Part shown: positions 12,958 through 54,786 of the stretch, in pieces
How the letters are laid out: every line of letters starts with the position of its first letter
Numbering within the stretch: the first letter of the stretch is position 1
NCBI RefSeq assembly: GCF_006345805.1
Contig: NC_042999.1
Location: 149,296,001 to 149,360,000, forward strand
Source: Octopus sinensis
Taxonomy: Eukaryota
Direction of reading: 5' to 3'
DNA length: 64,000 bases
Notes under the pieces: generated by a model
The model's database searches: none
Seen by the model: only the letters and a program-made list of their open reading frames with translations
What the model was told of the DNA's origin: nothing
Position numbers and translations under genes: made by a program

Positions 12958-13123
12958 GTCCCTTCCTTGGACCTTTCCTTTTTCTATGTTTCTGACGAAG
13001 AGCTCTGCTCAAAATGTTAAATCCTCCTTCTTTCTTTCCTTTCCTGAGCATCCAATAACACTATACTGGTTCCACATCCTCACGTCGTTGTGTTTCCTCT
13101 TTGTTCATGTTAGGATTAACTAT
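12958..13123 (+). mobile_element. Short element with a degenerate minimal hammerhead motif (same family as 38537-38750)
   Basis: gttt-CTGACGA-agagc.tct.gctc-aAAA-tg-TT-aaat at 12988-13022. The downstream sequence aligns with the reverse complement of 38537-38680 and ends in a (TA)n tract. Confidence 0.7.
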
Positions 13124-13554
13124 AGATATATATATATATATGTATATCTATTTATACACATACACGCATATATACAACAGGCTTCTTTTCAGTTTCCATC
13201 TATAGTAGAAGACATTTGCCCAATGTGTCACACAGTGGGACTGAACCTGAAGCTGTGTGGTGTACATTTTTGATCATAGCTCCACTTGATCAGACAGAAC
13301 TATCCTAGAGCTAAACAACAACAACAGTTTGTTATAAGAGGACCAAAAAAAAACAATAGAACACAAAATATGCACTAATTTATACCCGGCTCCTGTTGTG
13401 CAAGATATTTGCAGGAAGGAATGAGTCACTGGCTCCTGTTACTTATATCATGTGAAGACCAAGTTAAGTGGATTGTGTTACTTCATTGATAAATAGTTGA
13501 CCCCACCACCATTGCCTTCCTCTCTCTTTCATTTACTGATGAAGGAACGTTTTT

Positions 13555-13799
13555 ACTACACACATATGCAGGTGCATGCATACACACACACATACATGCA
13601 TAGGCACACATTTACTACCTACCTACAAATATGTGTGTGTGTATATATAGCGATACATATACATATATATCTAGATACATATGCACACACACAATACACA
13701 CATATATAAATACATATGCACACACACACATACATATACATACACATGCGCACACACATGTACATACATATAAATACACACATATATGTATATACATAT

Positions 13800-13896
<97 letters not shown>

Positions 13897-13910
13897 AACA
13901 CACACATATA
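13555..13910. repeat. (CA)n/(TACA)n microsatellite-rich tract
   Basis: Pure (CA)n at about 13801-13890 within a degenerate CA/TA tract. It explains the overlapping HTHT/CVCV ORFs. Confidence 0.97.
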
Positions 13911-14647
13911 GGCTTGAAAGAAATGAAGCCAACATGATGTGCTGAATGTGTAACGACAGAGTGTAAGTGCCCTAAAAGAAAAGTTGGGTATAAGAAGCAT
14001 CAAATGTGGTGTGCAAGAGAGGTGACTGTACTGGTATCATCATGAGTTACGCATGAATGAAGACAGCTGCGTGAGGAAGTGCCACTCCCTAACTGTGGAA
14101 GGAACCTGTGGAAGAGGTAGACCCAGGAAGACATGGGATAAGGTGGTGAATCATGGCCTTCAAATATTGAGCCCCACAGAGGCAATGACAAGAGATCGGG
14201 ACCTTTGGAGATATGCTGTAATTGAGAAGACCCAGCAACTAAAGTGAGATCGAGTCACGCATGTCCGGTCCTGTTAAGAATACCCTGATGCGTCAGACAA
14301 TGTGATATGCTTGAGAAGACCTGTTGAGTCAAGTAAAACTAATACCATAGCTGGGGCTAGTGCTCATGGCTGGCTCCCATGCTGGTGGCACATTAAAAGC
14401 ACCATCCGAACGTGGTCGATGCCAGATCCACCTGACTGGCCACTGTGCCAATGACATGTAAAAAACACCAACCGAACGTGGCCAATGCCAGTACCCCTTG
14501 GAGTGGTTGGCGTTAGGAAGGGCATCCAGTTGTAGAAACATTGGCAGATCAGATTGGCATCTGGTGTAGCTGCTGGTTCTCCAGATCTGTCAAACTGTCC
14601 AACCCATGCCAGCATGGAAAGCGGACGTTAAATGATGACGATGATGA
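13910..14647 (+). mobile_element. RTE LINE 3' end: ORF terminus plus 3' UTR and (GAT)n tail
   Basis: Reads RLERNEA...EKLGIRSIKCGVQER...RMNEDSCVRKCHSLTVEGTCGRGRPRKTWDKVV..TRDRDLWR (RTE 'RGRP...W' motif). It continues into the ubiquitous gtggttggcgttaggaagggcatccag...catggaaagcggacgttaaatgatga repeat, identifying that repeat as the RTE 3' UTR. Confidence 0.9.
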
Positions 14648-15682
14648 TATATCTACATAGATACGTATTTGTGTGTGTGTGTGTGTATTTATTCTTGTAG
14701 ATTTTTTATCTTTTTAGCCTTACCACCAGTAAAGTAGGTAGGTAAAAGTCACACCTGGCCATCTTAAAAATAAACAAATAAATAAAATGGGTACAACAGG
14801 TTGGATAATATTGTCTTAAATGAAAAGATGTGATGGTCATGATTGGAATACCAGCACTAAGCAGGGACTTGAAGAATAAAAATTCAGTTCCTTAAATTCA
14901 AACCTAACAAAAAATAGCTGTCCATGTTTTATTGAAAACAGGTATAATGGAAAGAGGAGAGAAGTCAGGTGAAATTTATGATTCAGAGTAAATTAGCATA
15001 AAATAATTGGAAATCATAAAATGAGCAGTAAAGAATGTGTGTGTGTTGGGGGGGGGGTGATGATGGATACATGTGCCTGCATGTGATGTTTAACCCCAAG
15101 TCAGTCATGATCAAGTAAATCTATGATCAACTGTACTCTGGCAGTGATCATCTAGTATTTTTTTTTTAGTTATTTTTAAACTTTTATTTCAGTGACAAAA
15201 ATTCTATTACCCAATGTTTGCTTTGTTATTCAAGATAGTAGAGGGTTATTTAAGGGAAATTTGGCTGCTATTTCTAGTTAGTTATGCATCTATGCAGAAG
15301 CTTCCTCCTTGTGTGTGTGTGTATATATGTGTGTATGTAGGGTCATGTTTGTATGTACCTGCATTTGATACTGTTTAGCCCCAGGTCAACTATGACTGAA
15401 TATCTTCTAGCTGTCATCATCCAGCATTTTTGTATCTGAGAGACTAAAATTATATATTACCAAATGTAACCTTTGTGATTCAAGTGAAATTTGGCTGCTA
15501 TTTCTAGTTGGCCATGTATCCATGCAGAAGTTTCCTCTTTGTGTGTGAGAGTGAGTAGATGGTGGTGACTAATACAAGCAATGATATAACTGAGATTACA
15601 TGCTAACATTACCAACTAAAATATGTACTATGATTATTTATTGCTTATTCTACCTCATTATAATTGACTTAGCTGTTACCAC

Positions 15683-16260
15683 TCATCATCATCGTTTAAC
15701 ATCCGCTTTCCATGCTGGCATGGGTTGGATGGTTTGACTGGGGACTGGCAAGCCAGGAGGCTGCACTAGGCTCCAATCTAATCTGGCAAGGTTTCTACAG
15801 CTGGATGCCCTTCCTAATGCCAACCTCTCTGAGAGAGTAGTGAGTGTCTTTTATGTGCCACTGTCACAGGGAGCCAGTCAGGCAGCACTGGCATCAACCC
15901 ACACATGAATGGTGCTTATTGCATGCCACCACATGAGAGCCAGTCAGACGGCACTGGCATCGGCCACATTCGGATGGTGCTTTTTACATGCCACTGGCAC
16001 GGGGAGCCAGTCAGGCAGCACTGGCATTGACCCACACATAAATGGTGCTTATTGCGTGCCACCAACATGGGAACCAGTCAGGCAGCACTGGCATCGGCCC
16101 ACACATAAATGGTGCTTATTGCGTGCCACCAACATGGGAACCAGTCAGGCAGCACTGGCATCGGCCCACACATAAATGGTGCTTATTGTATGCCACCAAC
16201 ATGGGAACCAGTCAGGCAGCACTGGCATCGGCCACAACTGCAATTTCCATTTTGATTGAG
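15683..16260 (-). mobile_element. RTE 3'-UTR repeat with an internal 67-bp tandem array (about 5-6 units)
   Basis: Begins catcatcatcgtttaacatccgctttccatgc. Unit ccagtcaggcagcactggcatcggcccacacataaatggtgcttattgcgtgccaccaacatgggaa at about 15874, 15941, 16007, 16074, 16141 and 16208. Confidence 0.9.
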
Positions 16261-16732
16261 ATTCTGATTATTATTATTGCAGAATCATTAGAGTCAGACA
16301 AAATGTCTTGCTCTATTTCTTTTGGTTCTTTACATTCTGAGGTCAAATACTACCAAGATCAACTTTTCTTTTCCTCATTTTGGGGAGATAAAATAAAAAT
16401 AGCAGTCAAATACTTGGGGTCAATTGAATCAACTGAGCTTACTTTTGTCCACTCCAGCCCCAAACTTGTGGTCTCATGCGTACATTACAAGTGATTATTT
16501 TGTGTTAATATCAAATCTATTTTCTTTAAGCAGTCTCAGACACTCCACCTCCAACCAAAGAACAAGAAGAATCTAACAGTAAAACAGCAGGTTACTCATG
16601 ATTGTTGACCTGTGCCATAATCACAAAAAGGGGATTCTATATTCTGTTCCCATTTCACTTTGCTGTTATAGAGTTAACTATGACATTTCCTCATGTTACA
16701 TATGTGGACTCAGAACACTTTGATAAATATTC

Positions 16733-17433
16733 CAACCCCTTTTAGTACCAACCCACCTGATACTGCCCCTGTTCTATTATATAAATTTCCTGTTTAGAAG
16801 GATCTGTATTAAAAGGGTCCACAATTTCTTTTAGCTTTGTTATGTAATATGTAATTAAGCAACATTCTAAACATCAACATAACCTTTTGACATTCAAATT
16901 ACTCTGTTTCTTTGCATAATGAACTGTAAATAACCAATATATTTACTGGAAATATATTTATTTACCCTTTAGCATTCAGATTGTTCTGTCAAATGTCATC
17001 ATCATCATCATTTAACGTCCACTTTCCATGCTAGCATGGGTTGGACAATTTGACTGAGGTCTGGTGAACCAGACTCCAATCTAATCTGGCAGACTTTCTA
17101 CAGCTGGATGCCCTTCCTAATGCCAACCAGCTGTAGAAACTCTGCCAGATCAGATTGGAGTCTGGTTCGCCAGACCTCAGTCGAATCGTTGAATTCAAAT
17201 GGTTGAATTAATTATGAGGCTTCAATGATGTGATTGCTTATTTTTAGAGTGACATTGTAGGGTAGGCATGAGAAGATGGATGTGGCCAGTTTTAACACAA
17301 AACAGGTAGAATATATGGCCAGTTTAAATGCTAAAGGCTTCAGAACGACAAAGACATTTTACTAAATTCTTCATTATTTTAAAAATTACTAAAAACCAGT
17401 ATTTCAACAGAAGTATGGTAACAAATGGGTTAA
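16733..17433. mobile_element. Nested piggyBac-like MITEs containing a fold-back RTE 3'-UTR insertion
   Basis: Outer ends are aacccctttagtacc... and ...ggtaacaaatgggttaa. Inner ends are cccttt(a)gcatt (about 16965) and aatgctaaagg (about 17330). The RTE piece spans 16996-17189. Confidence 0.65.
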
Positions 17434-18576
17434 GTAGATACAAATTGGCCAGGTAGATAAAATTTGGACACCAGCCCACAGGTAAGAAGTTTCAAATCTA
17501 ACGCAAGAATAGATGCAAGTCATTGTGCAATTATTTTAGCAGTGCACATAATTTTAGCTTCATATTACATCGCTGCGAAGAACAGGAATTAGATCTGCTG
17601 GGAATGTTACTTGCAATAGACTGATACCCCACTCAAGGGTAAGTTTATCGCTCATGGGCTGAACGCCATGAAACTAGAGCTAAACACTAGATTATATAAG
17701 ACCCTCAGAGCTTTGGAAATATTTACATTTGTTTGCTCTGCTCTTCTGACTTCGCTAGTGAAATATTTCTCCAAACAAAAATGATACGCTTTACATACTT
17801 TTACACTTGCTGACACCTTAAGTGTATGTATGTGAGCATCTGTGTGAGTACATGTATGTGTGAATTAGAGCATGTGTTCATGAGAGTATATCACCTGCGT
17901 GTGAAAATGCGTGTAGATGTGGGAGAGAGAGAGAGTGAGAATGTGTGTTTGAGAGAGACAGACAGACAGAAAAAGTGTGTGTGTGTGTGTGAGAAAGAGA
18001 GACAGACTGAGAAAGTATGTGTGCGTGTGTGCGTTTCTCAGTTCCTCTCTTTCTTTCTCTTTTTCTCCACAAGGCCACCTACAAAGCTAATCTTCACCAC
18101 ATCACAACAAAACCACAGACATAGTTTCAAAATTGTTAGGTAGATAAAAGATAAATATCTCTCTGGATAGAATACCATGTCTATCTCAGGATGCTTCCCA
18201 GTAAGAAGAATTCAACTAAGCCTTGTTGTTATTCCACCAATCTATATATTACCCCCCCCCCACCAACACACACACACACAGAGCATATTTCCCTTCAGAG
18301 ATTAACAAACAAAATATCGGTAATATACTAGGATTGGGTTCAATGACTATAAACAACTCCGGTGTTCTTTAGTTTGTTACAGCAATCATTGCTCAGACCA
18401 TTCTGGAGTAGCTATGTCTTTATGAAAAGTAATGCAATGAATATAGAAAAAAAGAAAGGCCCTCCTTTTAGTCAATGAAGAGGGCCTCCGATGGATCAGA
18501 GAGCTAGTAAAGTAATGCGGCAGGAATTAGTATGGACCTTGAAAAAGTTGAAACTTTACATAAAGAAGAACTGAGA

Positions 18577-19025
18577 ATGTCCTCCAGTTCTCTTGAACTA
18601 TTTTTATAATACTTATGACTCAAGTTGTCATGAATCTATTTTTACAATATCCATAACTCCAGCTCTCATGAATCTATTCTTATTATACCCTTGACTCCAG
18701 TTTTCTTGAGTCTATCCTTACACTAAACATGACTCTAGCTCTCATAAGTCCTTCATTACAATAGTCCTGATGCGAGCTCTCACTAATCTATCCTTATGAT
18801 ACACAACTCCAGCTCTTCTGAATATCTCCTTACAATACACATGACTCCAGCTGTCATGAATCTATCCTCACAATACCCACGACTCCAGCTCTTACAAATT
18901 TATCTTTGTATAATACCAATGACTCCAGCTCTTCTGAATCTCTCCTTACAATGCTTATGATACCAACTATCACAAATATATTCTTATGATATCCATGACT
19001 CCAGCTCTCATGAATCTATATGACT
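18577..19025 (+). repeat. Degenerate 38-bp minisatellite, about 12 units
   Basis: Consensus atgactccagctctcatgaatctatccttacaataccc. Units start at about 18577, 18615, 18653, 18691, 18729, 18767, 18803, 18841, 18879, 18919, 18957 and 18995. Confidence 0.9.
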
Positions 19026-19882
19026 ATAGTTTGAACAGTTCTAACACAATAATCTGATGCCCACCATCTCCAACCATGTAGTCACTTGACCCGATCTGTT
19101 TATTATTGAAAACAGCTGTTATTGTTACAGACATAATATGTTTCTTTTCCTCTTTCTCACTCATCCACTCCGTGCAACCACACAGACTGGTTTAGATTTC
19201 AAACTACAAGTATTACATGAAGGGTAAGGAAAATAAAAGTATTACAGGGATTGGCAGGAATTAACAACAATAACAATAAAATCATTCTTTGAATAACTGA
19301 ATAGTAAAGTTATAAATAATCTGTTTATACAGATCCAAATATTCAATGCCTAAACAAGATTAAGGTAGTCGATATATTGACTGGAGATCAGAAGAAAATG
19401 TAGGTTATATAGACAGAGTAATAACATCTTATTGGTAGAACATACATCTTGAGACACAATTAGACTTAAATAAATTTAACAGTTAATTTTTTCTGCCATT
19501 TCATTTACTTAAATGAATCAGAACACAGACAGTTTAAACAAACTAATGTAGGTCAAGTGTTTCACTGACTTCAATATATATATGTGAAAAACTATGTCTC
19601 TAATCTCATATGGGAATAATGGAATTCTTGAAGATTTCTTCTTCACATAAGGCACAGGGTTGGTTGTGTGGTTAAGAAACTCACTTTCCAGTGATGTGGT
19701 TTCAGTTCAATCCCACTGTGCACCACTTTGAGCAAGTGTCTTCTACTAAAGCTTTTAGCTGACCAATGCCTTGTGAATGAATATGACAGATAGAAACTGT
19801 GCAGAAGCCTGTCATATGTGCACACTTGTGTGTCTATATATAAGCCTGGTGATGCAAAGAGGAAAATAGAACTATGAGTATA

Positions 19883-20107
19883 CAGTAATCTCTCGCCATA
19901 TCATGGTTTACCTATCGTGGTTTATTATGTAAGATTACGTTGATTCCTCTGTGGTGTTGTTTTGCATTTATAATAAAATAAATATATACAAATTATAGAA
20001 ATAATAAAAAAAAATATATACAGTACAGTACTGTTTCTACTTCATGGATTTTTACCTATCGCAGGGGTTTTTGGAACATAACACCTGCGATAGTCAAGGG
20101 ATTACTA
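19883..20107. mobile_element. Tigger/pogo-like MITE (about 225 bp)
   Basis: Imperfect TIRs cagtaatctctcgccatatc... / ...gatagtcaagggattacta flanked by TA. Partial relatives lie at about 3990-4075 and 6607-6720. Confidence 0.7.
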
Positions 20108-20222
20108 TATATATTTTATTATTAATAATTGGCAGAAGTTACAGAGTGACTCAAGAGCCAGGAACTTTGCACATTGATTAGTGCCAATGTATGAGATTCT
20201 TGCTGACTATAAATAATAAAAA

Positions 20223-20830
20223 TAACATCAAAATAATAAAAAATCAAATGGATATTGTAGTTGTGATACCCATGCCGGTGGCACATTGGGCCTCACAGAG
20301 GCAATGACGAAAGACCAAGACCTCTGAGATATGCTGTGACTGTGAAGACCCAACAAATGAAGTTAGTTCATGGCTCGCAGGACGGCATGCTATGCTAACC
20401 TTGGATCGTAGGGTGACCTGCTATGCTTGAGAAGACCTATTGAGTCAAGTACATCAACATCAAAATAAAAATCAAATGGAAATTGTAGTTGTGATACCCG
20501 TGCCAGTGGCACGTAAAAAGCACCATCCGAATGTGGCCGATGCCAGCGCTGCCTTGACTGGTATCCGTGCTGGTGACACGTAAAAAGCACCAACTGATCG
20601 TGACTGTTTGCCAGCCTCCTCTGGCCCCCGTGCCAGTGGAATGTAAAAAAACACCCACTACACTCACGGAGTGGTTGGCATTAGGAAGGGCATCCAGCTG
20701 TAGGAACACTACCAGATCAGACTGGAGCTTGGTGCAGCCTCCTGGCTTCCCAGACCCTTGTCGATCCGTCCAACCCATGCTAGCATGGAAAATGGACGTT
20801 AAACGATAATGATGATGATGATGATGATGA
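20223..20830 (+). mobile_element. RTE 3' end with 3' UTR and (GAT)n tail
   Basis: ttgggcctcacagaggcaatgacg (LGLTEAMT) followed by the family 3' UTR and gatgatgat tail. Segment 20223-20285 duplicates 20456-20512. Confidence 0.85.
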
Positions 20831-21861: not shown

Positions 21862-21903
<42 letters not shown>

Positions 21904-28325: not shown

Positions 28326-29532
28326 CTAGCATGTTGTCCATACTTAACATGGGTTAGATGGTATGACAAGAGCTGGCAAGCTAGTGAGCTGCACCAAGCT
28401 CCAATTGTTTTTTAGCCATAGTTTCTACAGCTGGATACCCTTCCTGACACTAACCACTTTACTGAGTATACTGGGTGTCTTTTACAAGGCACCGGCATGA
28501 GTGCATTTTACATGGCACCAGCACGGGTAAAGAGAGAGAGAGAGAGGGAGAGAGATACAAGAAATTACTATAAACACATTTATATTATTTGTTTCTCCAC
28601 ACATATCCCCATTGTTGTTATCTGGAACTTCAGCATTGGATGATCCAAGTACAATTGGGTGTGTAACCACAACGCATCATCAGGGAACCACTTTATTGCA
28701 TTATGTTACAGGAAACTAATGTTGTGGTTAAGCATTCAACTGCACTTGGAAACATCCAAAGCAGAGTTTCAAAGAACCACAGTGGTAAAACGTACACAGG
28801 AACAAATGGTGTATTATTCTGTTTATCATAATTTCTCCGCATTTGCTTAGTATATCATAAATAATAAGACTACTCAATAGCAACTTAACCACTATACTGA
28901 AAGCAGACTGGATGATGATAATCTAGGTGGAGCTCTGAACTTAACAGTAGCAACTATTGAAAATTTAAATATTTATGAAAATATTTTCATAAATAAACTG
29001 AAGAGGAGGAAATAAAATAAAAATCATCATCATCGTTATTTAACGTCTGCTGTCCACACTGGCATGGGTTGGACGTTTTGACTGAGGGCTGGTAAGCCAG
29101 AAGGCTGCATCAGGCTCCAATCTGATTTGAGAAAATTTTTATAGCTGGATGACCTTCCTAATGCCAACCACGCCAAGAGTTTAGTGGATGCTTTTTACAT
29201 GCCACCAGCATGAGGGCCAGTCAGGCGGTAGTAGCATCAACCATGCTTGAATAGTGCTTTTTACATGTCGCTGGCACAGGAGCCAGTCAGGCAGCACTGG
29301 CTATGACCATGCTCGAATGGTGCTTTTCTAAGTGCCACCAGTTTGGGACCAGTCAATCAAGAACAAAATGTGTTCAAAAACTGAAATTAGCATTCAATTA
29401 AAACAAAAATAAAATTTGCTATAGAAATGTATTATTTCTATTTTTGAAATCAGTGAATGCATGTCACTAGAATAATCATTATATGTTTAGAAGGGCTAGA
29501 TAGGTATCTCCAACTAGCAAGTCATGCTACTC

Positions 29533-29571
29533 CAGACTGAAGACGAGCAACGACTCAGAAACTAGTCTCTG
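29533..29571 (+). ncRNA. Minimal type I hammerhead ribozyme, intact core
   Basis: caga-CTGAAGA-c.gag.caacga.ctc.a-GAAA-ctag-TC-tctg. Stem I is caga/tctg, stem II is gag/ctc, stem III is palindromic (ACUAGU), and the cleavage triplet is GUC. Confidence 0.75.
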
Positions 29572-30624
29572 AATGCTGGCTTAGCTGGGTGGAGGTGCTT
29601 ATCTCCCCCTTGTAAACATAAGGACACAGGAAATATGTCAAGGCTGACAAAGAGCAGTGCTGCTTCCTCAGGCTAAATAGCAGTAGTATTATTCCCTTCA
29701 TTGGGACTGTCACATTAAATTGACAGCATACAAAATTTGCTGTTTTACTAATTTGCATTAAATTACAGTTTTTGTTTTAACCTTTTTAATACTAACCCTA
29801 ACCACTCCTGGTTCTATGATACAAACTTCTTGCTTTAACCCTCTAACATTCAGATTACTCTGTCAAATCCATGTCTATTTATTCACATTGGTTTGAATTA
29901 ATCAGGCATTATTGGATAATTTTGAAATATTGGATGATGTGACTATTTTTAAAATTGTAGGGTTGGTGAGAGGCCAGATCTGACCAGTTTGAACATAAAA
30001 CATGTTGAAAATAGGGGCCAGATATGGCCTTTTAACTCTTTCATTACTGTATTAATTTTGAGATGTTCTGTGTTTCTTTCAATTAAATATAACAAAGAAT
30101 TTAGTAAAATAACTTAGTTATCATTCAGCTAGTGCTAGGAACATAACTTGCAATTAAGGTTTGGTGGAAGATTTTAATTTAAAACTTATGAAAACAAGAC
30201 ATTTGTACTACAGAGCCAAAGGCGGTTTCTGCTGGGTTGGTATCAAAAGAGTTAAGAATTGCTTCTCTATTATATATTTTAACCCTTTTGTTACCATATT
30301 TCTGTTGAGATGCTCTGTGTTTCTTTCAATTAATTTTAAATATAACAAAGGATTTAGTAAAATAACTGCAAGGTTTCTACAGCTGGATGCCCTTCCTAAT
30401 GTCAACCACTCTGAGAGTGTAGTGGGTGCTTTTTACCTGCCACCGGCATGAGGGCCAGTCAGGCGGCATTGGCATCAACCCCACATAATAATAGTAGTAA
30501 TAATATGTGCCTAGTGTACTCTTATCAGATGGGTAGTCATGATGGGTATATTGGACTTCATATATTTTACCCCAGTGTCACTTTGATGGCATGCACTGCT
30601 CTCTCACTCAATAATAATAATAAT

Positions 30625-36985: not shown

Positions 36986-37204
36986 TATACATACACATGT
37001 ATAAATCTGTCCATCTCATGATAGCATAGAAAGTGGACATAAAGTGGTGATGATCATATCTCAACTATATCTGTATCTATCTACCTATCCATATGCACAC
37101 ACACACACACATCAACTAGTACATACATTTGTCCAAACTTTGCTAACATGATGAATAGCAAACATGAAATAATGGCAGTTTTTTTTTTTTTTTTTCCTCT
37201 CCGA

Positions 37205-37278
37205 TGGCCGGATAGCTGAAGAGATAGCGGCGTGGATTTCCACCCCGACATCCGAAACTCGGAGTTTTATCATGGCTA
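37205..37278 (+). ncRNA. Type I hammerhead ribozyme, intact core, extended stems
   Basis: tggccg.gatag-CTGAAGA-gat.ag.cgg.c.gtgga.tt.tccac.c.ccg.ac.atc.c-GAAA-ctc.g.gag-TT-ttatc.a.tggcta. Stem I has 11 bp with a bulge, stem II is long, stem III is palindromic, and the site is GUU. CpG-rich, followed by (TA)n. Confidence 0.85.
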
Positions 37279-37306
37279 CCAAATGATTGTCACATATTAC
37301 ATTTAC

Positions 37307-37353
<47 letters not shown>

Positions 37354-38393: not shown

Positions 38394-38427
<34 letters not shown>

Positions 38428-38447
38428 TATTTTGTTTGAGTCAGTTT

Positions 38448-38495
38448 CTTGCTACTCTGAGTTTCATCAATATGTGCACAGGATCTTCAGACAAG
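38448..38495 (-). ncRNA. Minimal type I hammerhead ribozyme, intact core
   Basis: Minus strand: cttgt-CTGAAGA-tcctgtgcacatattgat-GAAA-ctc.a.gag-TA-gcaag. Stem I is cttgt/gcaag, stem III is palindromic, the site is GUA, and stem II is imperfect. It lies in a ~78-bp island between two (TA)n tracts. Confidence 0.75.
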
Positions 38496-38500
38496 TTACA

Positions 38501-38536: not shown

Positions 38537-38541
<5 letters not shown>

Positions 38542-38750
38542 ATCCAAACAAGAAAGCACAAAAAAACACAACAACGCGAGTATGTGGAACAAATATAGTA
38601 TTATTGGACGCTCAGGAAAGAAGGAAAGAAGGAGGGTTTAACGTTTCGAGCGGAGCTCTTCGTTGGAAACATAGGAGAAGGAAAGATCCAGAGAAGGGAA
38701 GACAGAGGAAAAAAAATCGCCAACGGTACACACAAGGTCACATTTTGAAA
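38537..38750 (-). mobile_element. Short (TA)n-embedded element with a variant hammerhead motif
   Basis: Minus strand 38670-38636: gttt-CCAACGA-a.gagc.tcc.gctc-GAAA-cg-TT-aaac. Homologous to 12958-13123, with (TA)n on both sides. Confidence 0.7.
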
Positions 38751-38899
38751 TATATATATATATATATTTGAGACCCCATGGTTGTAACCTCAACCGTGAT
38801 TTTTCTGTTGTGATTTTTGCTACCCAGGTATCGGTTATAATTTGAATAATCCGTAACAAGATAATTCATTTATCCATTTCAATAAATATATATATATAT

Positions 38900-39470
38900 A
38901 TCAAGTGTTATGAATCCAAACAAATACAGGAATAGAAGAAAAGAAGATGAAAATGCACAGAGTATATATAAGAGTTAATTAGGATTTAAGTATATTTTAC
39001 AATATAAGAAAACACTTGACCAGTTTCATATTAGATTTTCGAAGGTGTATAGTGTTTGGAGTTGTGACGCAAATTATGTCTATTCTGGCCATTGTTATAA
39101 AAATAGTTTGTTTTTAAAGTAGGAATATATATGATTTTAATTAAGGATTTAGAAGCACTTCATAAAATAACGTTTTCATTGTCAAACTTTAAAATTTCTG
39201 AAGTTTCTTGCATAAAATTATAACAAAAGTTTTAAGTTATGATATGAATATTTAAAAATGAGACACTGAAGCAGTTTTAGCCGGGATGGTACCAAAAGAA
39301 GCTATTGGTATTAAAAAAAAAAATTCTTCAAATTTTCAAAGAATTATAGTATTTTTTAAATTACTTCTTTTAATTAAGATGTGAAAATCAAGACAATAAA
39401 CCTGATAGTTCAATTTTTTTATATATATACTAAAAAGTTTTTAGTAATCTATAAAACATTTACAGACACA
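38900..39470 (-). mobile_element. Possible decayed Penelope-like element end
   Basis: AT-rich and (TA)n-flanked. Minus strand 39228-39160 reads FCYNFMQETSEILKFDNENVIL*, loosely like the PLE GIY-YIG C-terminal 'C.LC..EK..I......LLN'. A degenerate hammerhead-like ...GAAA-ctgg-TC-aagtgt follows at 39049-39012. Confidence 0.4.
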
Positions 39471-44590: not shown

Positions 44591-44807
44591 AAAGCAATTG
44601 CAGCATGGAAGGTGTTTATAAACCATTTAAAAACATACAAAAACTGTTAGATTCATTTCAACATTTAAATTTAATTTGTCAACATATTTTTGTCACTTTG
44701 AGACCGTGGCCTGTTCATTGACAAATTAAATTTAAATGATGAAGTGAATCTAACAGTTTTTGCATGTTTTTAAATGGTTTATAAACACCTTCACGCTGCA
44801 ATTGTTT
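44591..44807. repeat. Inverted repeat with ~90-bp arms and ~35-bp spacer
   Basis: aaagcaattgcagc...tttaatttgtcaa (44591-44682) versus ttgacaaattaaa...gctgcaattgttt (44718-44807). The spacer on the minus strand has a degenerate hammerhead-like layout. Confidence 0.9.
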
Positions 44808-45342
44808 CTGTTTCAGCACACAATCTAAGATCAGGTCACTTGCTATGCAAGTACAATAATCAAAGAGTGATTATTAAAAAAATTTCTTGATTTAAAAGCA
44901 ATAATTCCTTCATTCTCTTATGTCTTTCCTGCATTTTAATAAGAAATATTTAGAGAAACTGAATAAAAACACTAACAAAATTGATAGAGAACAATAAAAA
45001 TTCAAATACATGTGGTCCCCTAACAGTCACAGCTAAACTAAGGGAGATAATCATTTCATCACAAAAATTTAGTCATATATGAATATAGTCAGAATATATA
45101 ATGTGAAATATGCATTTGGTGAATACTAGTTATTAGTTGATAAGTGGCTGGAAAAATTAGTGAGTTCTAGCCTGGAATAACTGATTCAGATTGCTAATAA
45201 TTCAGCACTCTTAATGCTCAAAAGCGTTTCAGATGTTTTATTGACCCCCTTGAAAAATCACACAGACTACCAATCCCCAGAAGTCAATATTGATCACTTT
45301 ACAATTCCCAGCTAAAAAGGAAAGATGTGTGAACTGATGAAT

Positions 45343-45681: not shown

Positions 45682-45703
45682 AAGGGCAACATATCTGAAG
45701 TTC

Positions 45704-45752
<49 letters not shown>

Positions 45753-47419
45753 TATATTTCAAAGGAATGTTCTTCATGTCATCATTTGATGACCAATTTT
45801 CTATGCTGGCATGGTTTGAGCAGTTTGACAGGATCCAGTAAGCCACAAGAACATGTTGAGCTCCGATGTCAGCTTTGGCATGATTTCTACAGTTAAATGC
45901 TCTTCCTAATGTCACCCTTTTTACAATGTGTACTGGGTGCCTTTTTGTGTCACTGTCACTAGTGAAGTCACAAGTAACTTGCAAGACAAAGAAAAGAAAA
46001 AGCCTCCTTGAGTTAGTGAAAATGTATTAGAGAAGAGGGAAGTTGGTTTATAAAATGCTAAATTATGATAGAGAGACAATCACAGCAGGTAGAGGAGGTA
46101 CACGACTACCTTACATTATATAAGAATGGGAGGAAATAAGTAGGAAGAAGATAAAGATGGTGGTTATGAAGTGCCATATAAATATTGGTATGGTATCCTA
46201 TATATGTTATATAATGACTTAAAACAGTTCAATGAAATGAGATTATTCAAGCCATTATTTCATTAAAAAATGCTTACTAGGAGCATTTAAAATCTAAAAC
46301 TAAGGGAGATAATTCCAATAAGATCAGTTGATGGAAATAGTTGAGCAAAGCCAATTACAATGGATCAAATTTTTCCAAGCATTTGGTTAAAGTAACAAAT
46401 GTTTCACTTATATGATCTCTTGAATGATGCATGTATTACTCAGTTGGAAAGACTAGGAGTTATCATCACCATCATCATATGCAGAAATACAGGCAATGAA
46501 ATGACAGTGATTATAAATATGACCAATATGGCTGAAGAAAATGAATATGATCAAAGTTTTCAACTTATATTACATAAATGAATTTCTACCGTGTTTATGT
46601 TTAATATGGAGAACACTACCCTGAAGTAGCTTTTCTGCAGCTGGATACCCTTCCTGTCACCAAGCCTCACATGTTCCCAAGCAAGGTAATATTTCTCTAT
46701 AACCTGACATGTTCTCACATGACACTGTTTGTAAACCGATCATTCTTAATCACACTATGTCAAGACACACACACCCAAATGACACAAGAAATAACAAGAA
46801 ACTTAGCATCTGTAACTTTTGCACAAGTAATCACACAAACACACATGTACAAAATGTCCTTATCCAGTTCCCATCCACTCAAAGGCTTTGGTTGCTTTGG
46901 GTCAATAGTACAAGACATTTGCCCAAGGTCCTGCATAGTGGAACTGAATGAGAAACTAAGTGGTTGGGAAGTGAATTTGGTGTGTACGTAAGTGTGAATG
47001 TGTTAATTGTTTTTACTTTTGCAAACATAGTAGAAAATGCCTTGCTGAAGAGACCTAATAAGACAGGAACATGTCCAATGCTTTCACTGTCAACTGATCT
47101 TATTGAAATTATCTCCCTTGTTGATTTTATAATTTAGATACTTCAAGAGGGAGATTTTGCCAACTAATTGTATGTGTGATTAAGACGTTCACAACAATGT
47201 GGTTCCAGGTTCAATCCTACAGAAAGGTACCTTAGGTAAATGCTTTTGGTAAATGTCAGGTTGATCAATAATTTGTGAGCAAAATTTGATAAAAATGAAA
47301 CTGTGAATAAGTCAGCCACATGTATATATACATAGGTATCAATATATGTATAAATGTAAGCATATATATACATGCACATGTAGGTACATATGTATATTCA
47401 AACATGCTTTGAATATATA

Positions 47420-47785
47420 TAATAATAAATATTAGGGAATAAATCCAAACTTACAGGGAAAAATCAGATTTAGGATTGAATCCAATTTTATAGTAAAATA
47501 TTATATTATATTAAATTAGAGACAAAACCACTATTAGGCAAATCATACAATGAAAAACTTAAGCCAATACATAAGATTATTTAATTTATATTATTTAAAT
47601 AACAAAATTATTAAAAAAATATAATTAATATAACACTACGATCGTTTCATTGCTGTTAATTTCTTTAAATTTTCGAGTTACAGTCATTCATCAGGTGTTT
47701 TAAATATTTTTCTTATGTATTGGCTTAAGTTTTTCATTGTATGATTTGCCTAATAGTAGTTTTGTCTCTAATTTAATACAATATA
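47420..47785 (-). mobile_element. (TA)n-flanked element with ~70-bp inverted repeats enclosing a hammerhead (Penelope pLTR-like)
   Basis: Arms at about 47505-47576 and 47711-47782 (attaaattagagacaaaa...ccaatacataaga and its reverse complement). The hammerhead lies between them. Confidence 0.75.
47632..47699 (-). ncRNA. Minimal type I hammerhead ribozyme, intact core
   Basis: Minus strand: aacac-CTGATGA-atgactgtaactcgaaaatttaaagaaattaacagcaat-GAAA-cgatcg-TA-gtgtt. Stem I is aacac/gtgtt, stem III is palindromic (ACGAUCGU), and the site is GUA. Confidence 0.85.
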
Positions 47786-47797
47786 TATATATATATT

Positions 47798-48440
47798 GCC
47801 GAGTCCCCAAAACATGTACCAAGGGTGATAAAAATCAAACATTCAGTCAACATCATGGTGTTTGGAGTAATCACTAATGATGGTGATATTATGCCTCCAT
47901 TCATCTTCCCACATGGCCTCAGACTCAACACGGAAGCCTACATCAGGGGCCTGGAGGTAGTGCTGTTCTGGGTCAATAGGGTGGCTGCCAGAAGACGCTA
48001 TGTCTGGCAACAAGACTCTGTACCATGCCACACAAGCAGGAGTACTCAATAATGCCTGTCTGACAATTTCTGCAACCACATCACTCCTAACATCTGGTCA
48101 CCTAACTCCCCAGATTGCAACCCCCTTGATTATGTGTGGGGTGCAGTTGAGTGAGAGATCAACAAAATTCCATGTAACACCAAAGATGAACTGAAGGCAA
48201 GAATTATGGCAGTTTTCACCAATTTAAACAAGGAGACCATCTAGAAGAGTTGCAGGAGATACCGAAGTTGTCTGGAGGCTGTGGTTGAAGCCAATGGCAA
48301 TTTTATTGAATAAATTTATTCTTTAGTATTTCAAGATATTTTTATGTAATTTTGGTAAAATATATCTGTTAAAATGAGATGACAGTGTTATTTTCAGTTT
48401 TGTATAATTTAGACAACAATTTATTCGCCGCAACCTATAT
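47798..48440 (+). mobile_element. maT-type (DD37D) Tc1/mariner transposon, 3' half, pseudogenised
   Basis: Reads IMVFGVITNDGDIMPPFIFPHGLRLNTEAY...VWQQDSVPCHTSRSTQ*CLSDNFCNHITPNIWSPNSPDCNPLDYVWGAVE*...LEAVVEANGNFIE* (ends 48313). There are 37 residues between QQD and PLD. A TIR-like end lies at about 48415-48438. Confidence 0.9.
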
Positions 48441-49646
48441 ATTGCATGCATACACACATGTATGTACACACATATATATGCATGTGTATATATGGGTATA
48501 TGTATGTAAATATGAATGTATGAGTGCAGGTATTTATGCATACATATATATGCGCACACATATATATATATACATATATATATATACATGAATTCATTTG
48601 CATATGTATACATGTGTATACATATGTGTGTATGCACGTATGTTCCACCCCCAGCTCATGATTTTTTCAATCAGTCAACTTCAAGAGAAATATAAAGAAT
48701 ACTAGTAAACTATTACTTAGCTGTTAATCTCTTGACTAAACTGTGTATTCTTATTACTAGCATCCAGTTAACAGGGTCACTTGATATGCTAGAATTAGTA
48801 GCCAAAATCTACTTTATATCACACTTTGCTAACTTAAAAAGAAGGAAGCAACAGAGATATATCTAGGCCTTTATTTAACCCTTTTGTTACTATATTCCTG
48901 TTGCAGTTGCTTTTGAAATAAGGAAAAAATTAGTAAAATAACTGTCATTATTAAGCTAGTATTTGGAACATAAATTATCATGAAAATTGTGATGAAAGCT
49001 TTAATTGGATTTACTTTAAAGCAGGAAGTGTGCATCACAGAACCAAAGGTGGTCTCAGGAGAGTTGGGATCAAAAGGAGAGCAATATGGTGCATGTGTGA
49101 AAGTGTGTGGGATTTCATTGCTATTTCTTGCAAAGTGAATGGCCACATAGAGACTCCCTCCCAAAACAACGAACTTCACAATAAACAAATTTTGTGAGAC
49201 CATGACCTATGAGACAGGGTATTTGTGCTAAGTAAAAAAAAAAAAATCAGTTATTATTCATATCAACAATAGTGTAGAGATTTGGTTTAGGTGATCGAGT
49301 ACCTTTCAGACTCTACCCTTGCACTTCTAGATTCTCAATACAAATGTTTTCAGGTTTTATTTTGCTTTCCACCCCTCTGGGGTCAAAACAACTAAATACA
49401 TGAATCCTTGTTCATGTACAATATGTAACTATAGTTCATATATGTGAATGATAGTTCATTCTCTATATTTCCCCTTTAAATGTGTACCTCTACTCTTTTG
49501 TTTTACGTGGGAAAATGCCTAGACAGGTTTAGTCAACTATTTATAAGTCTACTAGTTATTGTATCAGTATTTTTTGCCAAACCACTAAGTTACAGGGGAA
49601 TGTAAACTAACACTGATTGTCAAACATTTTTGGGATACAAACACAA

Positions 49647-49955
49647 GTGGAGGCACATGGCCTCGTGGTTAGAGCAGCGGACTCGCAGTTGAGGGATCAT
49701 GGGTTCGAATCTCAGACCAGGTGATGTGTGTTTATGAGTGAAACACCTAAGCTCCACACAACTCCGGCAAAAGGTAATGGGGAACTTCTGCTGACTCTTT
49801 CGCCACAACTTTCTCTCACTCTTTCCTCCTCCTGCATCTAGCAGCTCACCTGCGGTGGACCAGCGTCCTGTCTAGGTGGGGAACCTATATGCCAATGAAA
49901 CTGGGAAACTGGCCCTTATGAGCCAGGCATAGCTCAAGAAGGAACAAACAAACAT
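49647..49955 (+). mobile_element. tRNA-derived SINE family C
   Basis: A-box tggcctcgtggttagagc, B-box ggttcgaatctc, body with cctgcggtggaccagcgtcctgtctagg, and an (AAAC)n tail. It is inserted into a family A SINE. Confidence 0.8.
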
Positions 49956-50562
49956 AACAATCAAGGATACACACATGCACGCACATGTGCACACACACAC
50001 ACACACACGATGATCTTCCTTTCAGTTTCTGGTTAATAAATCCCCTGACATAGCTGTGATTGTCCTGGAGCTATAGAAGACAACACTTGCCCAAGGTGCC
50101 ATGCAGTAGGATTGAACCCAAGATCACATAGTTGGGAATCAAGCTTCTTAACCTCACAGACATACCTGGTGTATAAAATTTTTATTCTACAAGACTTTTG
50201 TCAAATTTTACTTACTCCATGTGGGGTTTTTTTAGACTCTTTCTCCTTAATGAATGCAAGCGTCCGGTTGCCTCTATCTGAAAAACAACAACAAAGAATT
50301 AGATGTATTGCTTTTTTTTTTCTTTCAGTCAAGAAATACATGTAAATAAATTATAAGAGTGTGTGCACGCGTATATAAATTCTGAAATGAGAGTAAACGG
50401 ATAGTCAATAGAAAACTAAAGCTTAGATATGTTTATTTGAAACTGAAGATTCCTTTTAATGCTACTCAGAGCTTTATACCACATTTTCCGTCATACAAGT
50501 TGGACTGTTCAGGCCAAACTGTACAACCAAAACACAAGGTCCGACTTACACACCAAGATAAA

Positions 50563-50735
50563 TTTGAATGATTAAAATTTCTATGTGAAATACAGGATTG
50601 TAAAGATAGTGATAATGTTTGAATGATTAAAATTTCTATGTGAATCACAGGATTGTAAAGATAGTGATAATGTTTGAATGATTAAAATTTCTATGTGAAT
50701 TACAGGATTGTAAAGATAGTGATAATGTTTGAATG
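50563..50735. repeat. 55-bp tandem triplication
   Basis: tttgaatgattaaaatttctatgtgaaatacaggattgtaaagatagtgataatg three times, near-identical. Confidence 0.95.
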
Positions 50736-50751
50736 TTTACACCACATGTTT

Positions 50752-51197
50752 ATTGGAGCGATAAGAGTACCATACGAGTGAGATCGTTGCCAGAGCAACA
50801 AGCTGGCCTTTGTGCCGATGGCACGTTAAAAACACCATTCAAGTGTGATCGTTACCTGCATTGCCTTACTAGCACTTGTGCTGGTGGTACATGAAAAAAA
50901 AGCATTTGAGCGAGGTCATTGCCAGTGCTGCTGGACTGGCTCCTGTGCAGGTGGCACATAAAAAGTACCATTTGAGCATAGCCGTTGCTAGTACCAGCTA
51001 ACTGGCCCTCGTGCCGATGGCACATAAAAGCACCCACTACACTCTCAGAGTGGTTAGCATTAGGAAGGGCATCCAGCTGTAGAAACTGCCAGATCAGATT
51101 GGAGTCTGGTGCAGCCATCTGGTTCGCCAGACCTCAGTCAAATTGTCCAAGCCATGCTAGCATGGAAAGTGGACGTTAAATGATGATGATGATGATG
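50752..51197 (+). mobile_element. RTE 3'-UTR copy with (GAT)n tail
   Basis: Family sequence. A closely related copy in the opposite orientation lies at 51781-52225, inside a family A SINE. Confidence 0.88.
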
Positions 51198-51259
51198 ACT
51201 ACAATGACTTAGATGCCAGAAAATAGTGCATTAGCAGGCATGAAAACAAGAAAAGAAAT

Positions 51260-51600
51260 TTCAAGGGCTACTATGAAGAAGGAAGAGCATGGATTGGCCA
51301 CAACATAAAGAGCTATGGAAAGATCTACACTAGGAAGATCATTGTGAGAGCATATATAAAGTGGAATAAATGATGTGATATCAGGGTACTGAAAGCAAAA
51401 GTTTCACTGGGCTGGTCATGATGCAATGGTCACAGAGAACAGGTGGACCTGTGCAGTTGTATCCAAGAGATTAGAAAGGCAACTTGGAAGACCTTTACAA
51501 TGATAGAAAGATGATTTAGGTAAACGATTTGGGCCAATATAGAAAAGAAGGGTGATTTCATCAAAGAACTGGAAGCACACTGAGACAAGTGGTGTATAAC
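51260..51600 (+). mobile_element. Old RTE LINE fragment (third subfamily)
   Basis: Decayed translation includes ATT*RAMERSTLG...KQKFHWAGH...ENRWT...LGRP, matching the RTE 'RAMER...WAGH..R....RW....GRP' pattern. Confidence 0.65.
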
Positions 51601-52659
51601 AACATATGATAGTTTGATCAATGCAGGTTTTGTGTGGTAAGTAGCTTGCCTACCAACCACATGGTTCTAGGTTCAGTCCCACTGTGTGGCACCTTGGACA
51701 AGTGTCTTCTACTAAAGCCTTGGACTGACCAAAGCCTTATTAGAGGATTTGGTAGACAAAAACTGAAAGAAGCCTGTTGTCATCATCATCATCGTTTAAT
51801 GACACCTTTCCATTCTGGCATGGGTTGGATGATTTGCCTGAGGTCTGGCGAACCAGATGGCTGCACCAGGCTCCAATCTGATCTAGCAGAGTTTCTACAG
51901 CTGGATGCACTTCCTAACACCAACCACTCTAAGAGTGTAGTAGGTGCGTTTACGTGCCACCAGCATGAGGGCCACGCTCAAATGGTGCTTTTTACGTGCC
52001 ACCTGCACAGAAGCCAATCCAGCGGCACTGGCAATGACTTCGTTCAATTTTTTTTTACGTGCCACCAGTAGAAGTGCCAGTAAGGCAACACAGGTAATGC
52101 TTACACTCGAATGGTGCTTTTAACGTTCCACTGGCATGGTGGCCAGCTTGTTGCTCTGGCAACGATCACACTCATATAGTACTCTTAGCACTCCACTAGC
52201 ATAGATGCCAGTCATCGAATTTGTTTTCTTTTAGATATATATATATATATATTTGTGTGTATCAGTGTTTGTCTCCACACCATCACTTGAACAACTGGTG
52301 TTGGTGTGTTTATATCCCCGTAACTTAGCGGTTCAGCAAAAGTGACCGATAGAATAAGTACTAGGCTTACAAAGGATAAGTCCTGGGGTCAATTTGTTCA
52401 ACTAAAAGTTGTGCTCCAGCACGACCGCAGTCATATGACTGAGCCAAGTAAAATAATAAGAGTTATTGGTGAGGGATTTTCAAACCAGGCAAAATACTTC
52501 ATAAGCTCTGTTTGCACACCAGGCTAACAATATTGTATAGATTAGCAAAGAACTCCAAGTGTTCTTGTGGCAGGGTCAAAGGTTATAGTTCATCACCATT
52601 CTAAATTGTGAATCCATGCAAGACAAAGTATAAATAATGGACATTACACATTTTCCCCT

Positions 52660-53951
52660 TATCCCTTGTGACATATTCAGAAAACAATGTTGAAAAGCAT
52701 CAAGAAATTAGGGAGGCATTCCATGTTTCAACATGATCCTAAATACACTTCAAAAACGATGACCAAGTTTTTATCAGATAAAAAGATAAAGGTATAGAAT
52801 ATCTGTGGTGTGTTTTGAAAAGGAAGGTTGAGGAGAAAATACCCACACTGTAACACAGATGAAAGACATTATTCAGGATGAATGGAGGTTGATTTCATCG
52901 GTCATATGTGGAAATTTAGTTGTCTCTATGCCCACAAATCTTAATGCGGTCATTGAAATCAAGGACGGTAATACCAAATATTGAATATAGCAAATAACCC
53001 TTTAGAGTGTACATATTTTTGTGTGAACGTGACCTGGGTGTTATTGTTGACAGTGATTTGCGTTGGACAAAACACATCACTAAAATTGTCAAGAAGGCTG
53101 AGGGTGTCTTGGCATCACTCACCAAATCCTTTGTGAGCCGCTCTCCAACTATCTATCTGCGGCTTTATATAGCTATGGTAAGACCTCACCTGGAATTTGC
53201 ATCACCGGTCTGGAACCCCTATCTTTCCCAGGATATCAATCATCTGGAAGCCGTTCAGTGACGTGCAACCAAAAGAATACCCTCCATCAGGCATTTGCCA
53301 TATTCTGAATGCCTTACTTTCCTGGGTATGGACACATTGAAACTCCGACATCTGGCAGCTGACTTGGCAGACACCCATAAAATTATCAACCATCTCACAA
53401 ACAATAACTCTGAGCACCTTTTCAAACTCCACCTGTCTAGCACCCGTGGACATATTTACAAAGTAAGAAAACAGCACAGCTCCCATGACTTTAGGAAACA
53501 TTTTTTTCAAGCTGAGAGTTGCTGAAGCATGGAACAAACTGCCGGCATCGGTTGTTAGTTGTCGGAGCACTGCATCCTTCAAAACTTACATGCTTTCTGA
53601 GATTCGCCAACACTACACCTGATTTCCTCCCCTACATACACACGCAAGCATGTATCTGACTCATACATTGTTCGCTTTCCAGACATTTGTACATTACTGC
53701 ATACACTTTATACGTACTTTCTGACAAGTTGTGGTGCACCTGAGTACTGTATACAATAATTTCATTATTATTATTATTATTATTTCATTAATATCTTTGA
53801 AAATGTTTATTGTTTTGTATTCCAAATTTGTATAATATTTGCATGTGTAATATAATTTACTCAGAATAAATTTTGTTTCATTTCCTTCAATATTATCAGA
53901 GTAATGACAATTTTCTTGAAATTTTTTAGGGGTATACATACTTCTGAGAAT

Positions 53952-53957
<6 letters not shown>
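52660..53957 (+). mobile_element. Tc1-type transposon remnant interrupted by a CR1 LINE
   Basis: Reads MLKSIKKLGRHSMFQHD..PKYTSK...IEYLWCVLKRKVEE...IQDEWRLI...NLVVSMPTNLNAVIEIKDGNTKY* (to about 52984). Related motifs agagtgtacatattttt (about 53003) and aggggtatacatacttct (about 53928) suggest a right TIR split by the LINE. Confidence 0.75.
53020..53775 (+). mobile_element. CR1-clade LINE, 5'-truncated RT C-terminus plus 3' UTR and (ATT)n tail
   Basis: Reads ERDLGVIVDSDLRWTKHITKIVKKA...LYIAMVRPHLEFASPVWNPY...LEAVQ*RATKRIP...TRGHIYK...WNKLP. Contains one stop and a frameshift. Confidence 0.95.
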
Positions 53958-54004
<47 letters not shown>

Positions 54005-54102
54005 TAAAGAGTGGTCACTATGTGGCTCACTCTAGCACTAGAAATAGATCCAATAGGTTTCAACCACAAAATAAATGTATCTAATTCTCTCACCCTTATT
54101 AA

Positions 54103-54135
<33 letters not shown>

Positions 54136-54143
<8 letters not shown>

Positions 54144-54638
54144 ATATAGAGGGCATTATACATACATGCCAGGAGCATTCTACATACACGCCATAACGCT
54201 AAGAGGGACAATCAGTCATTTCTACCAAAAATATTACTAATCCCACCGAATGCAATTTTTCAAAGAAAGACATTTAAAAATATATAGACCTGCATCACAG
54301 TGATTTCATACTTACGCAATCATCAGCAGGCCTGAATATACTATAAATAAACAACGACCCTGCCTCGCTTAAGTCGATCAGCTACTGGTTAGCTGATCGA
54401 CTTAAGCGAGGCAGGGTCGTTGTTTATTTATAGTATATTCAGGCCTGCTGATGATTGCGTAAGTATGAAATCACTGTGATGCAGGTCTATATATTTTTAA
54501 ATGTCTTTCTTTGAAAAATTGCATTCGGTGGGATTAGTAATATTTTTGGTAGAAATGACTGATTGTCCCTCTTAGCGTATGGCGTGTATGTAGAATGCCT
54601 CCTGGCATGTATGTATAATGCCCTCTATATATAAATTA
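54136..54638. repeat. Near-perfect palindrome with ~249-bp arms and a 5-nt loop, each arm with a hammerhead-like motif
   Basis: Centre ...aagtcgatcagcta-ctggt-tagctgatcgactt... (loop 54385-54389). I saw only two 1-bp indels between the arms. The motif lies at 54441-54488 (+) and 54286-54333 (-). Confidence 0.95.
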
Positions 54639-54753
54639 ATATGTTCAATAAGAAATAATTATTTTCGAAATTTTTTCTCTTATGAGGTTTTTACGCTATC
54701 TACCTGACAATTTCTTGTTAAGTTTTCCTTATTAAGTAGTTGTCCTTAATTGC

Positions 54754-54786
<33 letters not shown>

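Follow-up and report, generated by a model that had tools for sequence, protein, structure and literature searches.

Minimal type I hammerhead ribozymes have been described from the pseudo-long terminal repeats (pLTRs) of Penelope-like elements (PLEs; PMC4209133) and from animal retrozymes that lack long terminal repeats (non-LTR retrozymes; PMC7229834; Li, Clavereau and Pollet 2026, bioRxiv 10.64898/2026.07.22.740005). Published hammerhead counts, obtained with descriptors other than those used here, stand at about 9,000 for Xenopus tropicalis (PMC4209133), above 6,000 for a coral and at 126,247 for the axolotl (PMC7229834), and 235 Rfam hammerhead matches are reported for the giant squid (PMC6962438). 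For PLEs, nicking of both target strands and two reverse transcription start sites have been reported in vitro (PMC11167929), and the described insertion anatomy with its tail (PMC8557442) agrees with the insertions reported here. In the literature searched, outside which most subscription papers lay, no published study of these motifs, combining hammerheads and Penelope in Octopus or other cephalopods, was found. The stretch of DNA analysed here (the window) comprises 64,000 nt of Octopus sinensis (NCBI RefSeq assembly GCF_006345805.1, contig NC_042999.1, positions 149,296,001 to 149,360,000), in which an initial annotation made from the letters alone had listed 12 hammerhead sites. By comparison with their genomic relatives, 11 of these are confirmed as type I hammerhead motifs, belonging to nine repeat families. 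The families very probably represent the 3′ ends of Neptune/Nematis-type PLEs together with short units lacking open reading frames (ORFs), which are likely moved by the PLE protein.

Hammerhead motifs in the window and the genome

The window is AT-rich, contains abundant microsatellites and SINE-like repeats, and belongs to a 2.72-Gb assembly. A strict descriptor (exact type I core, helix I of at least 4 bp, helix III of at least 3 bp) returned four matches in it, all with C3-G8; these are the four sites recorded as intact in the initial annotation, whose minus-strand coordinates mark the low end of each motif, and nothing besides. In the shuffled control that it had called for, the mean number of matches was 0.07-0.17 and the maximum 2, and none of 900 shuffled windows reached 4 (six schemes of 150 each; di-, tri- and tetranucleotide), so that the enrichment holds. 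A sample of 40 evenly spaced 10-kb stretches of the genome (399,900 bases) yielded 12 strict matches, spread over 8 stretches, where 12 shuffles gave 0.58. Two of the 12, with long and non-palindromic helices III, are probably chance matches, and the location of 11 of them on the plus strand was likewise taken as chance, the matches being clustered in those 8 stretches. Extrapolation to the genome yields about 78,000 strict matches, or about 29 per Mb, variant and decayed copies not included (Poisson range 38,000-139,000, which is too narrow because the matches cluster). A family-based count on the same 400-kb sample found 28 matches, a few of them doubtful. The suspicion that such motifs are poorly annotated was borne out in the window, where Rfam gave 83 matches at E<=1, none of which is to a hammerhead family.

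The initial annotation had proposed at least six families; nine were found, and each queried family has many relatives in the genome, as expected from the high copy number and diversity claimed for them. First-look searches returned 164-2,649 candidates per queried family, of which 40 were scored per query, and each intact site turned out to belong to a dispersed family. The majority sequences of the families come closer to the hammerhead than the window copies, which differ from them by decay. In every one of the nine families, helix I (3-8 bp) and helix III are paired and the motif is open at helix I; helix II measures 1-8 bp and commonly starts with a mismatch. All four intact-core motifs have the palindromic or near-palindromic helix III that had been noted for them, and each shows a mismatch or decay in stem II. 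The exact core (C3 U4 G5 A6 N7 G8 A9 / G12 A13 A14 A15.1 / U16.1 H17) is found in these four window copies and in the majority of a family with a 481-nt unit, and it departs from the consensus in the C4, U3-A8 and G3-C8 families described below. Most of the cores that had been called variant or degenerate are family-wide variants with later decay rather than private damage. The site that did not stand is 50480(-): seven relatives end at the terminus of a different repeat, before the supposed GAAA and helix III. The segment 50472-50560 is the end of this small repeat, which accounts for the rejected site; its terminus is similar to Tc2/pogo-type inverted repeats.

Families with compensated cores

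Families are named here by site (29537, 37216, 38490, 47694, 39040 for the 39012 site, and 38666 for the 12988 and 38636 sites) or by their core. At 12988(+) and 38636(-) lie two decayed members of a single family, whose common core is CCGACGA (C4); G5 is lost in the 38636-38670 motif, consistent with CpG decay. This is the most abundant family found, with 4,969 exact genomic matches to a 34-base pattern. The corresponding counts are 1,255 for a pattern of the G3-C8 family (the 44676 site) and 672 for a 34-mer of the 481-nt family, and the reversed-pattern controls for all three were 0. Among the first 100 matches of the C4 family, 79 read C4-G5, 16 U4-G5 and 5 C4-A5, so that C4 is the common state. 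The excess of U4-G5 over C4-A5 (16 vs 5, p = 0.027) is a separate observation, since CpG decay alone predicts equality; a canonical subfamily or reversion is possible. A C4 core was also found behind a 775-amino-acid open frame (see below) and in a third family.

The G3-C8 family has the core GUGAACA, the stem II GUCGC/GCGAC, the helix III AAUAUU and U17. With positions 3, 7 and 8 left free, 89 of the first 100 matches read G3-C8 and none C3-G8. Nine of its loci (L274, L275, L276, L291, L293, L294, L295, L299 and L300) have identical junctions and flanks and are thus passengers inside another repeat, so that not every copy counts as independent. Another G3-C8 family, an older one seen at locus L115:2895-2930 (minus strand), has 231 candidates, most matching at 75-83%, and a different stem II and loop; its aligned copies all have C8 and most have G3. 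The A3-U8 family, found at locus L230:2066-2103 directly behind a PLE GIY-YIG domain, is young (1,269 candidates, 96-99%), and 27 of 28 copies keep the A3-U8 pair. Across 1.71 Mb of examined sequence, which is query-biased and overlapping, 26 of 35 motif clusters have a Watson-Crick pair at positions 3-8 (18 C-G, 5 U-A, 2 A-U and 1 G-C), and shuffles of the same sequence gave 7.3 matches per replicate, 1.7 of them paired. The genome thus holds multi-copy families for all four base pairs at 3-8. The G3-C8, A3-U8 and C4 families were not found in the text or the supplement alignment of PMC4209133, and the literature searched, which lacked most subscription papers, yielded laboratory variants and no natural G3-C8 or A3-U8 hammerhead.

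The prevalence of paired cores among clusters whose stems are wholly different bears on a first alternative, in which the hammerheads, above all those with G3-C8, A3-U8 and C4, are catalytically dead passengers that spread without cutting. Chance decay does not predict the pair-keeping double changes seen for G-C in two families with unlike stems II and for A-U in nearly every copy of its family, and the C3G/G8C double change partly restores cleavage of a PLE hammerhead (PMC11167929). On the other side, cleavage is dispensable for insertion in vitro (PMC11167929), U4C reduces activity in vitro (PMC3088659), minimal hammerheads are poor cutters (PMC4209133), and the large G3-C8 family has no tandem unit that would provide a dimer in cis. 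On balance, dead passengers seem a somewhat improbable explanation. High-copy natural cores that are compensated and under apparent selection provide material for asking whether PLE hammerheads have to cut.

Insertion anatomy and a 481-nt retrozyme

The mirror pair of motifs at 54442(+) and 54287(-) belongs to a young, ORF-less 481-nt unit, whose best copies match at 98-99% and which always lies in (TA)n. Its arrays reach about 20 monomers, with one hammerhead per unit and A17 as the family state; the window motifs have G17 and a stem II change that are private to the locus, the stem II change occurring genome-wide only in its two arms. From these sequence features, the family has the layout of an ORF-less tandem retrozyme with one type I hammerhead per unit. 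The monomer is predicted to fold strongly (z = -7.1; none of 100 shuffles was as stable). In many arrays, private changes are common to all monomers and both arms (e.g. 11/11, 14/14), a pattern that one template copied repeatedly would give.

Two-armed insertions of this unit have two fixed ends, one arm ending at about monomer position 161 and the other at about 283, and either arm may take either end. This was observed in 14/14 two-armed insertions of a first set, which further contained one array running off both ends and five one-armed insertions, and in 16/17 of a position-ordered set of 20 loci with three one-armed insertions, i.e. in 30 of 31 in total. Head-to-head pairs of other families similarly combine a short and a long end: 33/36 in the G3-C8 family (25/28 after collapsing the nine with a shared junction), 16/19 in the 47694 family and 11/12 in the 37216 family. 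In the window, the sense arm of the 44591..44855 insertion has the short end and the other arm the long one, and in the 47413..47796 insertion the tail is on the sense arm, with none on the inverted arm. Tails measure about 60, 75, 100 and 122 nt. Two fixed ends with a tail on one arm are, as read from the junctions, the PLE ‘tail’ signature. What appears new is that this insertion signature would tie a tandem retrozyme to PLE chemistry; it bears on how animal retrozymes move and names two candidate start sites (161 and 283).

In two further families, 29537 and C4, the tail recurs upstream of the motif; the implied periods are about 350 nt and 270-280 nt. A tandem unit was not seen for the G3-C8, 47694, 37216 and 38490 families; a 369-nt repeat at one G3-C8 locus was considered and proved to be a duplication of the whole insertion. 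The longest G3-C8 copies start in simple repeat, and 26 copies have no common unique upstream sequence. The proposed preference for (TA)n is upheld, since (TA)n adjoins 7 of 10 window insertions; the 29422..29733 insertion is instead flanked by a short AT-rich direct repeat.

Association with Penelope-like elements

Among 5,029 genomic candidates, 150 were scored, of which 149 matched GIY-YIG. Two open frames, of 780 and 775 amino acids, encode RVT_1, a CX4CX2C linker and then GIY-YIG, with RVT_1 above the Pfam cut-off in one and just below it in the other. The elements are likely endonuclease-positive (EN+) PLEs of the Neptune/Nematis type, judging by domain layout, linker and (TA)n targets. 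Of 30 GIY-YIG loci, 12 are followed downstream, on the same strand, by a U3-A8 hammerhead whose helix III is palindromic, and a 13th by an A3-U8 hammerhead. The autonomous elements seen mostly have U3-A8, A3-U8 or C4 cores. With C4 also the core of the most abundant family, a large class of repeats is missed by Rfam and by descriptors restricted to CUGANGA.

Both long frames are preceded by an overlapping upstream frame in another phase, of 297 or 280 amino acids (L243:1441-2334, L244:3976-4818). These upstream frames are basic and Asn/Lys-rich, have no Pfam match, and could reflect a conserved frameshift, an intron or a second ORF.

A second alternative is that the islands are all 5′-truncated ends of autonomous PLEs, with no self-standing non-coding units among them. 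This is true of two families: in the 39040 family, 7 of 19 relatives have same-strand PLE remnants, including reverse transcriptase (RT)/GIY-YIG remnants upstream of the motif, and in the A3-U8 family PLE ORF remnants precede the motif at 9 of 20 loci (two of the nine being one duplicated locus). PLE copies are also usually truncated (PMC8557442). Truncation alone does not account for ORF-less 481-nt arrays of up to about 20 monomers, for tails repeated upstream of the motif at periods of about 350 and about 275 nt, or for the G3-C8 copies that begin in simple repeat and share no unique upstream sequence, and as a general explanation it is distinctly unlikely. The linked RT/GIY-YIG ORFs that the initial annotation proposed to look for thus exist in the genome. 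Its description of the elements as largely ORF-less holds for the window, where two Neptune-type queries found no PLE ORF, but not for the 39040 family, which is the truncated end of ORF-bearing PLEs. An ORF match in one C4-family locus belongs to a neighbouring element.

The 100% complementarity of the window arms over 189 nt could also be produced by long-read fold-back, making the mirror pair and other inverted pairs assembly artefacts; yet the arms end at different fixed sites in 30/31 loci, the flanks are not mirrored, and public contigs of other samples also join opposite strands, so that this is highly improbable. Chance matching in AT-rich repeat DNA is true of the 50480 site and probably of two strict matches in the genome sample, but it is refuted for 11 of the 12 sites by the shuffles, none of which reached the window count, and by family majorities that fit better than the window copies, and it deserves almost no weight.

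Possible editing signals on the 481-nt unit

In three public sequencing runs guessed to be RNA, A>G/T>C changes accounted for 20/23, 38/56 and 25/39 of the changed places on the 481-nt unit. Further runs gave 2/3, 3/7 and 0/3, all small, and a fourth 1/8. A deep DNA-like run gave 8/25 and had zero change depth at seven sites shown by the RNA-like run X4. The RNA labels of all these runs are guesses and the data are contigs; the code of the DNA-like run is that of another organism, and the two comparisons were made under different settings. The pattern is a hint that transcripts of both strands across head-to-head insertions fold back and undergo adenosine-to-inosine (A-to-I) editing, core adenosines included.

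Capture of such edits into genomic 481-nt copies is weakly supported. Array-level changes comprise 8 A>G vs 3 T>C (p = 0.037), or 8 vs 1 (p = 0.005) when two calls of the misaligned window hairpin are dropped, and 6 vs 1 (p = 0.023) without the window's two sites; the position-ordered set alone gives 3 vs 1 (p = 0.20), and changes in single monomers run 2 A>G vs 6 T>C. The polarity is taken from one reference monomer, and the idea itself was drawn from the window copy. One degenerate pattern, in which one site had to be G, retrieved no copy from the genome that bears additional A>G changes. In seven older families captured editing was rejected (A>G 160 vs T>C 217; expected share 0.437, p = 0.64).

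Proposed mechanism

Motifs, families, copy numbers, insertion anatomy and ORFs were observed directly; from them we infer which element moves which, the cleavage of the hammerheads and the existence of RNA circles. The PLE RT/GIY-YIG protein would nick a (TA)n or AT-rich target on both strands. Two cDNAs of variable length would be primed at two fixed positions inside the element RNA, and their head-to-head joining would leave an inverted pair in which just one arm has a tail. Where transcripts are tandem, two hammerheads would pair through their palindromic helices III and cut as a dimer, releasing RNA of unit length (481, about 350 or about 275 nt). Such RNA may form circles and serve as template for repeated rounds of copying into arrays. 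The majority of copies in the genome would be dead and in neutral decay. Cleavage as a dimer is proposed by analogy with the literature. In the energy model, the palindromic helices III give self-duplexes of -0.2 to -10.1 kcal/mol and no stable monomer hairpin.

Several points weigh against this model. Seven families have no PLE ORF beside any examined copy with the two Neptune-type queries, and, against the references employed, the two-end test gave no information on the 29537, 38666, 38490 and 39040 families. Variants are mixed within 6 of 13 481-nt arrays, and one circle would not account for this. Taken as monomers, none of the four intact-core motifs of the window adopts the complete hammerhead in the energy model; this is expected for dimer types, and equally for dead ones. 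Only 1 of 9 Xenopus dimers was cleaved in the Li et al. preprint, and the low activity of minimal hammerheads (PMC4209133) and their dispensability for insertion in vitro (PMC11167929) count here as well. As a whole, the initial interpretation of the window as hosting a diverse population of ribozyme-bearing retroelements is supported.

A joint reading goes further. The genome would amount to a mutagenesis screen run by nature on the hammerhead core, its tens of thousands of motifs, from more than 30 families, using all four Watson-Crick 3-8 pairs, with G3-C8, A3-U8 and C4 as working ribozymes; the 481-nt RNA would be circular and copied repeatedly by the PLE protein from two fixed starts, each nicked strand of (TA)n having one; and the genome would sometimes take up A-to-I edits made on that RNA, as in the A17-to-G copy of the window. 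This combination is tentative and, taken together, rather unlikely.

Individual insertions and other features of the window

Table 1. Hammerhead-bearing insertions in the window (positions of the 64,000-nt stretch).
Feature	Position	Strand	Details
C4-core family copy, decayed; unit about 275 nt	12959..13120	+	Motif 12988-13022, with decay at G12 and in helix III; terminates in (TA)n
Circularly permuted copy of a unit of about 350 nt	29422..29733	+	Hammerhead 29533-29571; helix III ACUAGU; C17
Truncated element end	37200..37308	+	Hammerhead 37211-37271; branched stem II; helix III ACUCGGAGU; U17; ends in (TA)n
Copy of an older family, 78-87% to relatives	38425..38498	-	Hammerhead 38448-38495; helix III ACUCAGAGU; A17; two (TA)n runs around
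C4-core family copy	38540..38767	-	Motif 38636-38670 reads CCAACGA; helix III ACGU
PLE 3′ end, U3-A8 core	38900..39129	-	Motif about 39010-39050, decayed; family helix III ACCGGU, one-pair stem II
Head-to-head insertion, G3-C8 family	44591..44855	-	Decayed motif 44675-44725
Canonical motif, decayed	47039..47081	+	Core with one mismatch; just 2 relatives found, with helix III ACAUGU
Head-to-head insertion in (TA)n	47413..47796	-	Hammerhead 47632-47699; helix III ACGAUCGU; A17
481-nt retrozyme, left arm	54131..54384	-	Motif 54287-54332; terminus in (TA)n, at monomer position 161
481-nt retrozyme, right arm	54390..54764	+	Motif 54442-54487; ends at monomer position 283 in (TA)n

Other repeats were observed in the window besides the insertions of Table 1. 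The segment 52900-53784 is the 3′ remnant of a LINE, which we take to be CR1/L2-like by motif, with an inverted copy at 95-96% some 42 kb away at 11284-11732. Two frames at 60605-61256 gave nothing significant with Pfam (60605-61253); they resemble the restriction-like endonuclease end of an R4/Dong-type LINE. A SINE-derived tandem array with a 331/316-bp unit and matches of 93-94% occupies 8967-10702, and a 26-bp minisatellite of 24 copies lies at 58410-59025.

Comparison with known systems

The motifs resemble the minimal hammerheads of PLE pLTRs (PMC4209133) in their type I layout, palindromic helix III and short helix I, in the many unrelated families per genome, and in occurring mostly as single truncated copies with some opposite-strand pairs. 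The U3-A8 variant and an additional base between 9 and 10.1 in several families are also shared with that survey. They differ in a longer helix III (4-12 nt from 15.1 to 16.1) and in a 10.1-11.1 position that is often U-U or C-A instead of G-C, and no cephalopod is listed in the accessible part of the survey.

Like animal non-LTR retrozymes (PMC7229834; Li et al. preprint), the elements form ORF-less tandem units that each bear a single type I hammerhead, are low in GC, pair strongly with themselves and co-occur with PLEs; the axolotl HHR_Amex2 likewise has U-U at the base of stem II. The 481-nt unit exceeds the 170-400 nt range of PMC7229834 and falls within the 51-972 bp of the Li et al. preprint. 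Unlike those retrozymes, the insertions described here are head to head in (TA)n with two fixed ends, and lack long target duplications. The Li et al. preprint ties retrozymes to PLEs through co-occurrence and sequence trees, and the insertion ends are unused in the portion available.

Neptune/Nematis EN+ PLEs (PMC8557442; PMC11167929) share the order of RT and C-terminal GIY-YIG, a CX2-5CxxC linker, (TA)n targets, an inverted truncated copy on the 5′ side, a tail at one end and two RT start sites. The tail lengths given above compare with 30-40 bp described for them, and both full elements found here carry the second, overlapping upstream frame.

Natural core variants described previously (PMC3088659) include U3-A8 covariation, the U10.1-U11.1 mismatch, stems II of one or two pairs, and U4C, tolerated in vivo in a viroid. 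The variants in that account are rare single cases, whereas here whole families of hundreds to thousands of copies have C4, G3-C8 or A3-U8 as their usual core. PLE hammerheads, retrozymes, U3-A8 and U4C have already been published; the family-wide compensated cores appear to be an addition.

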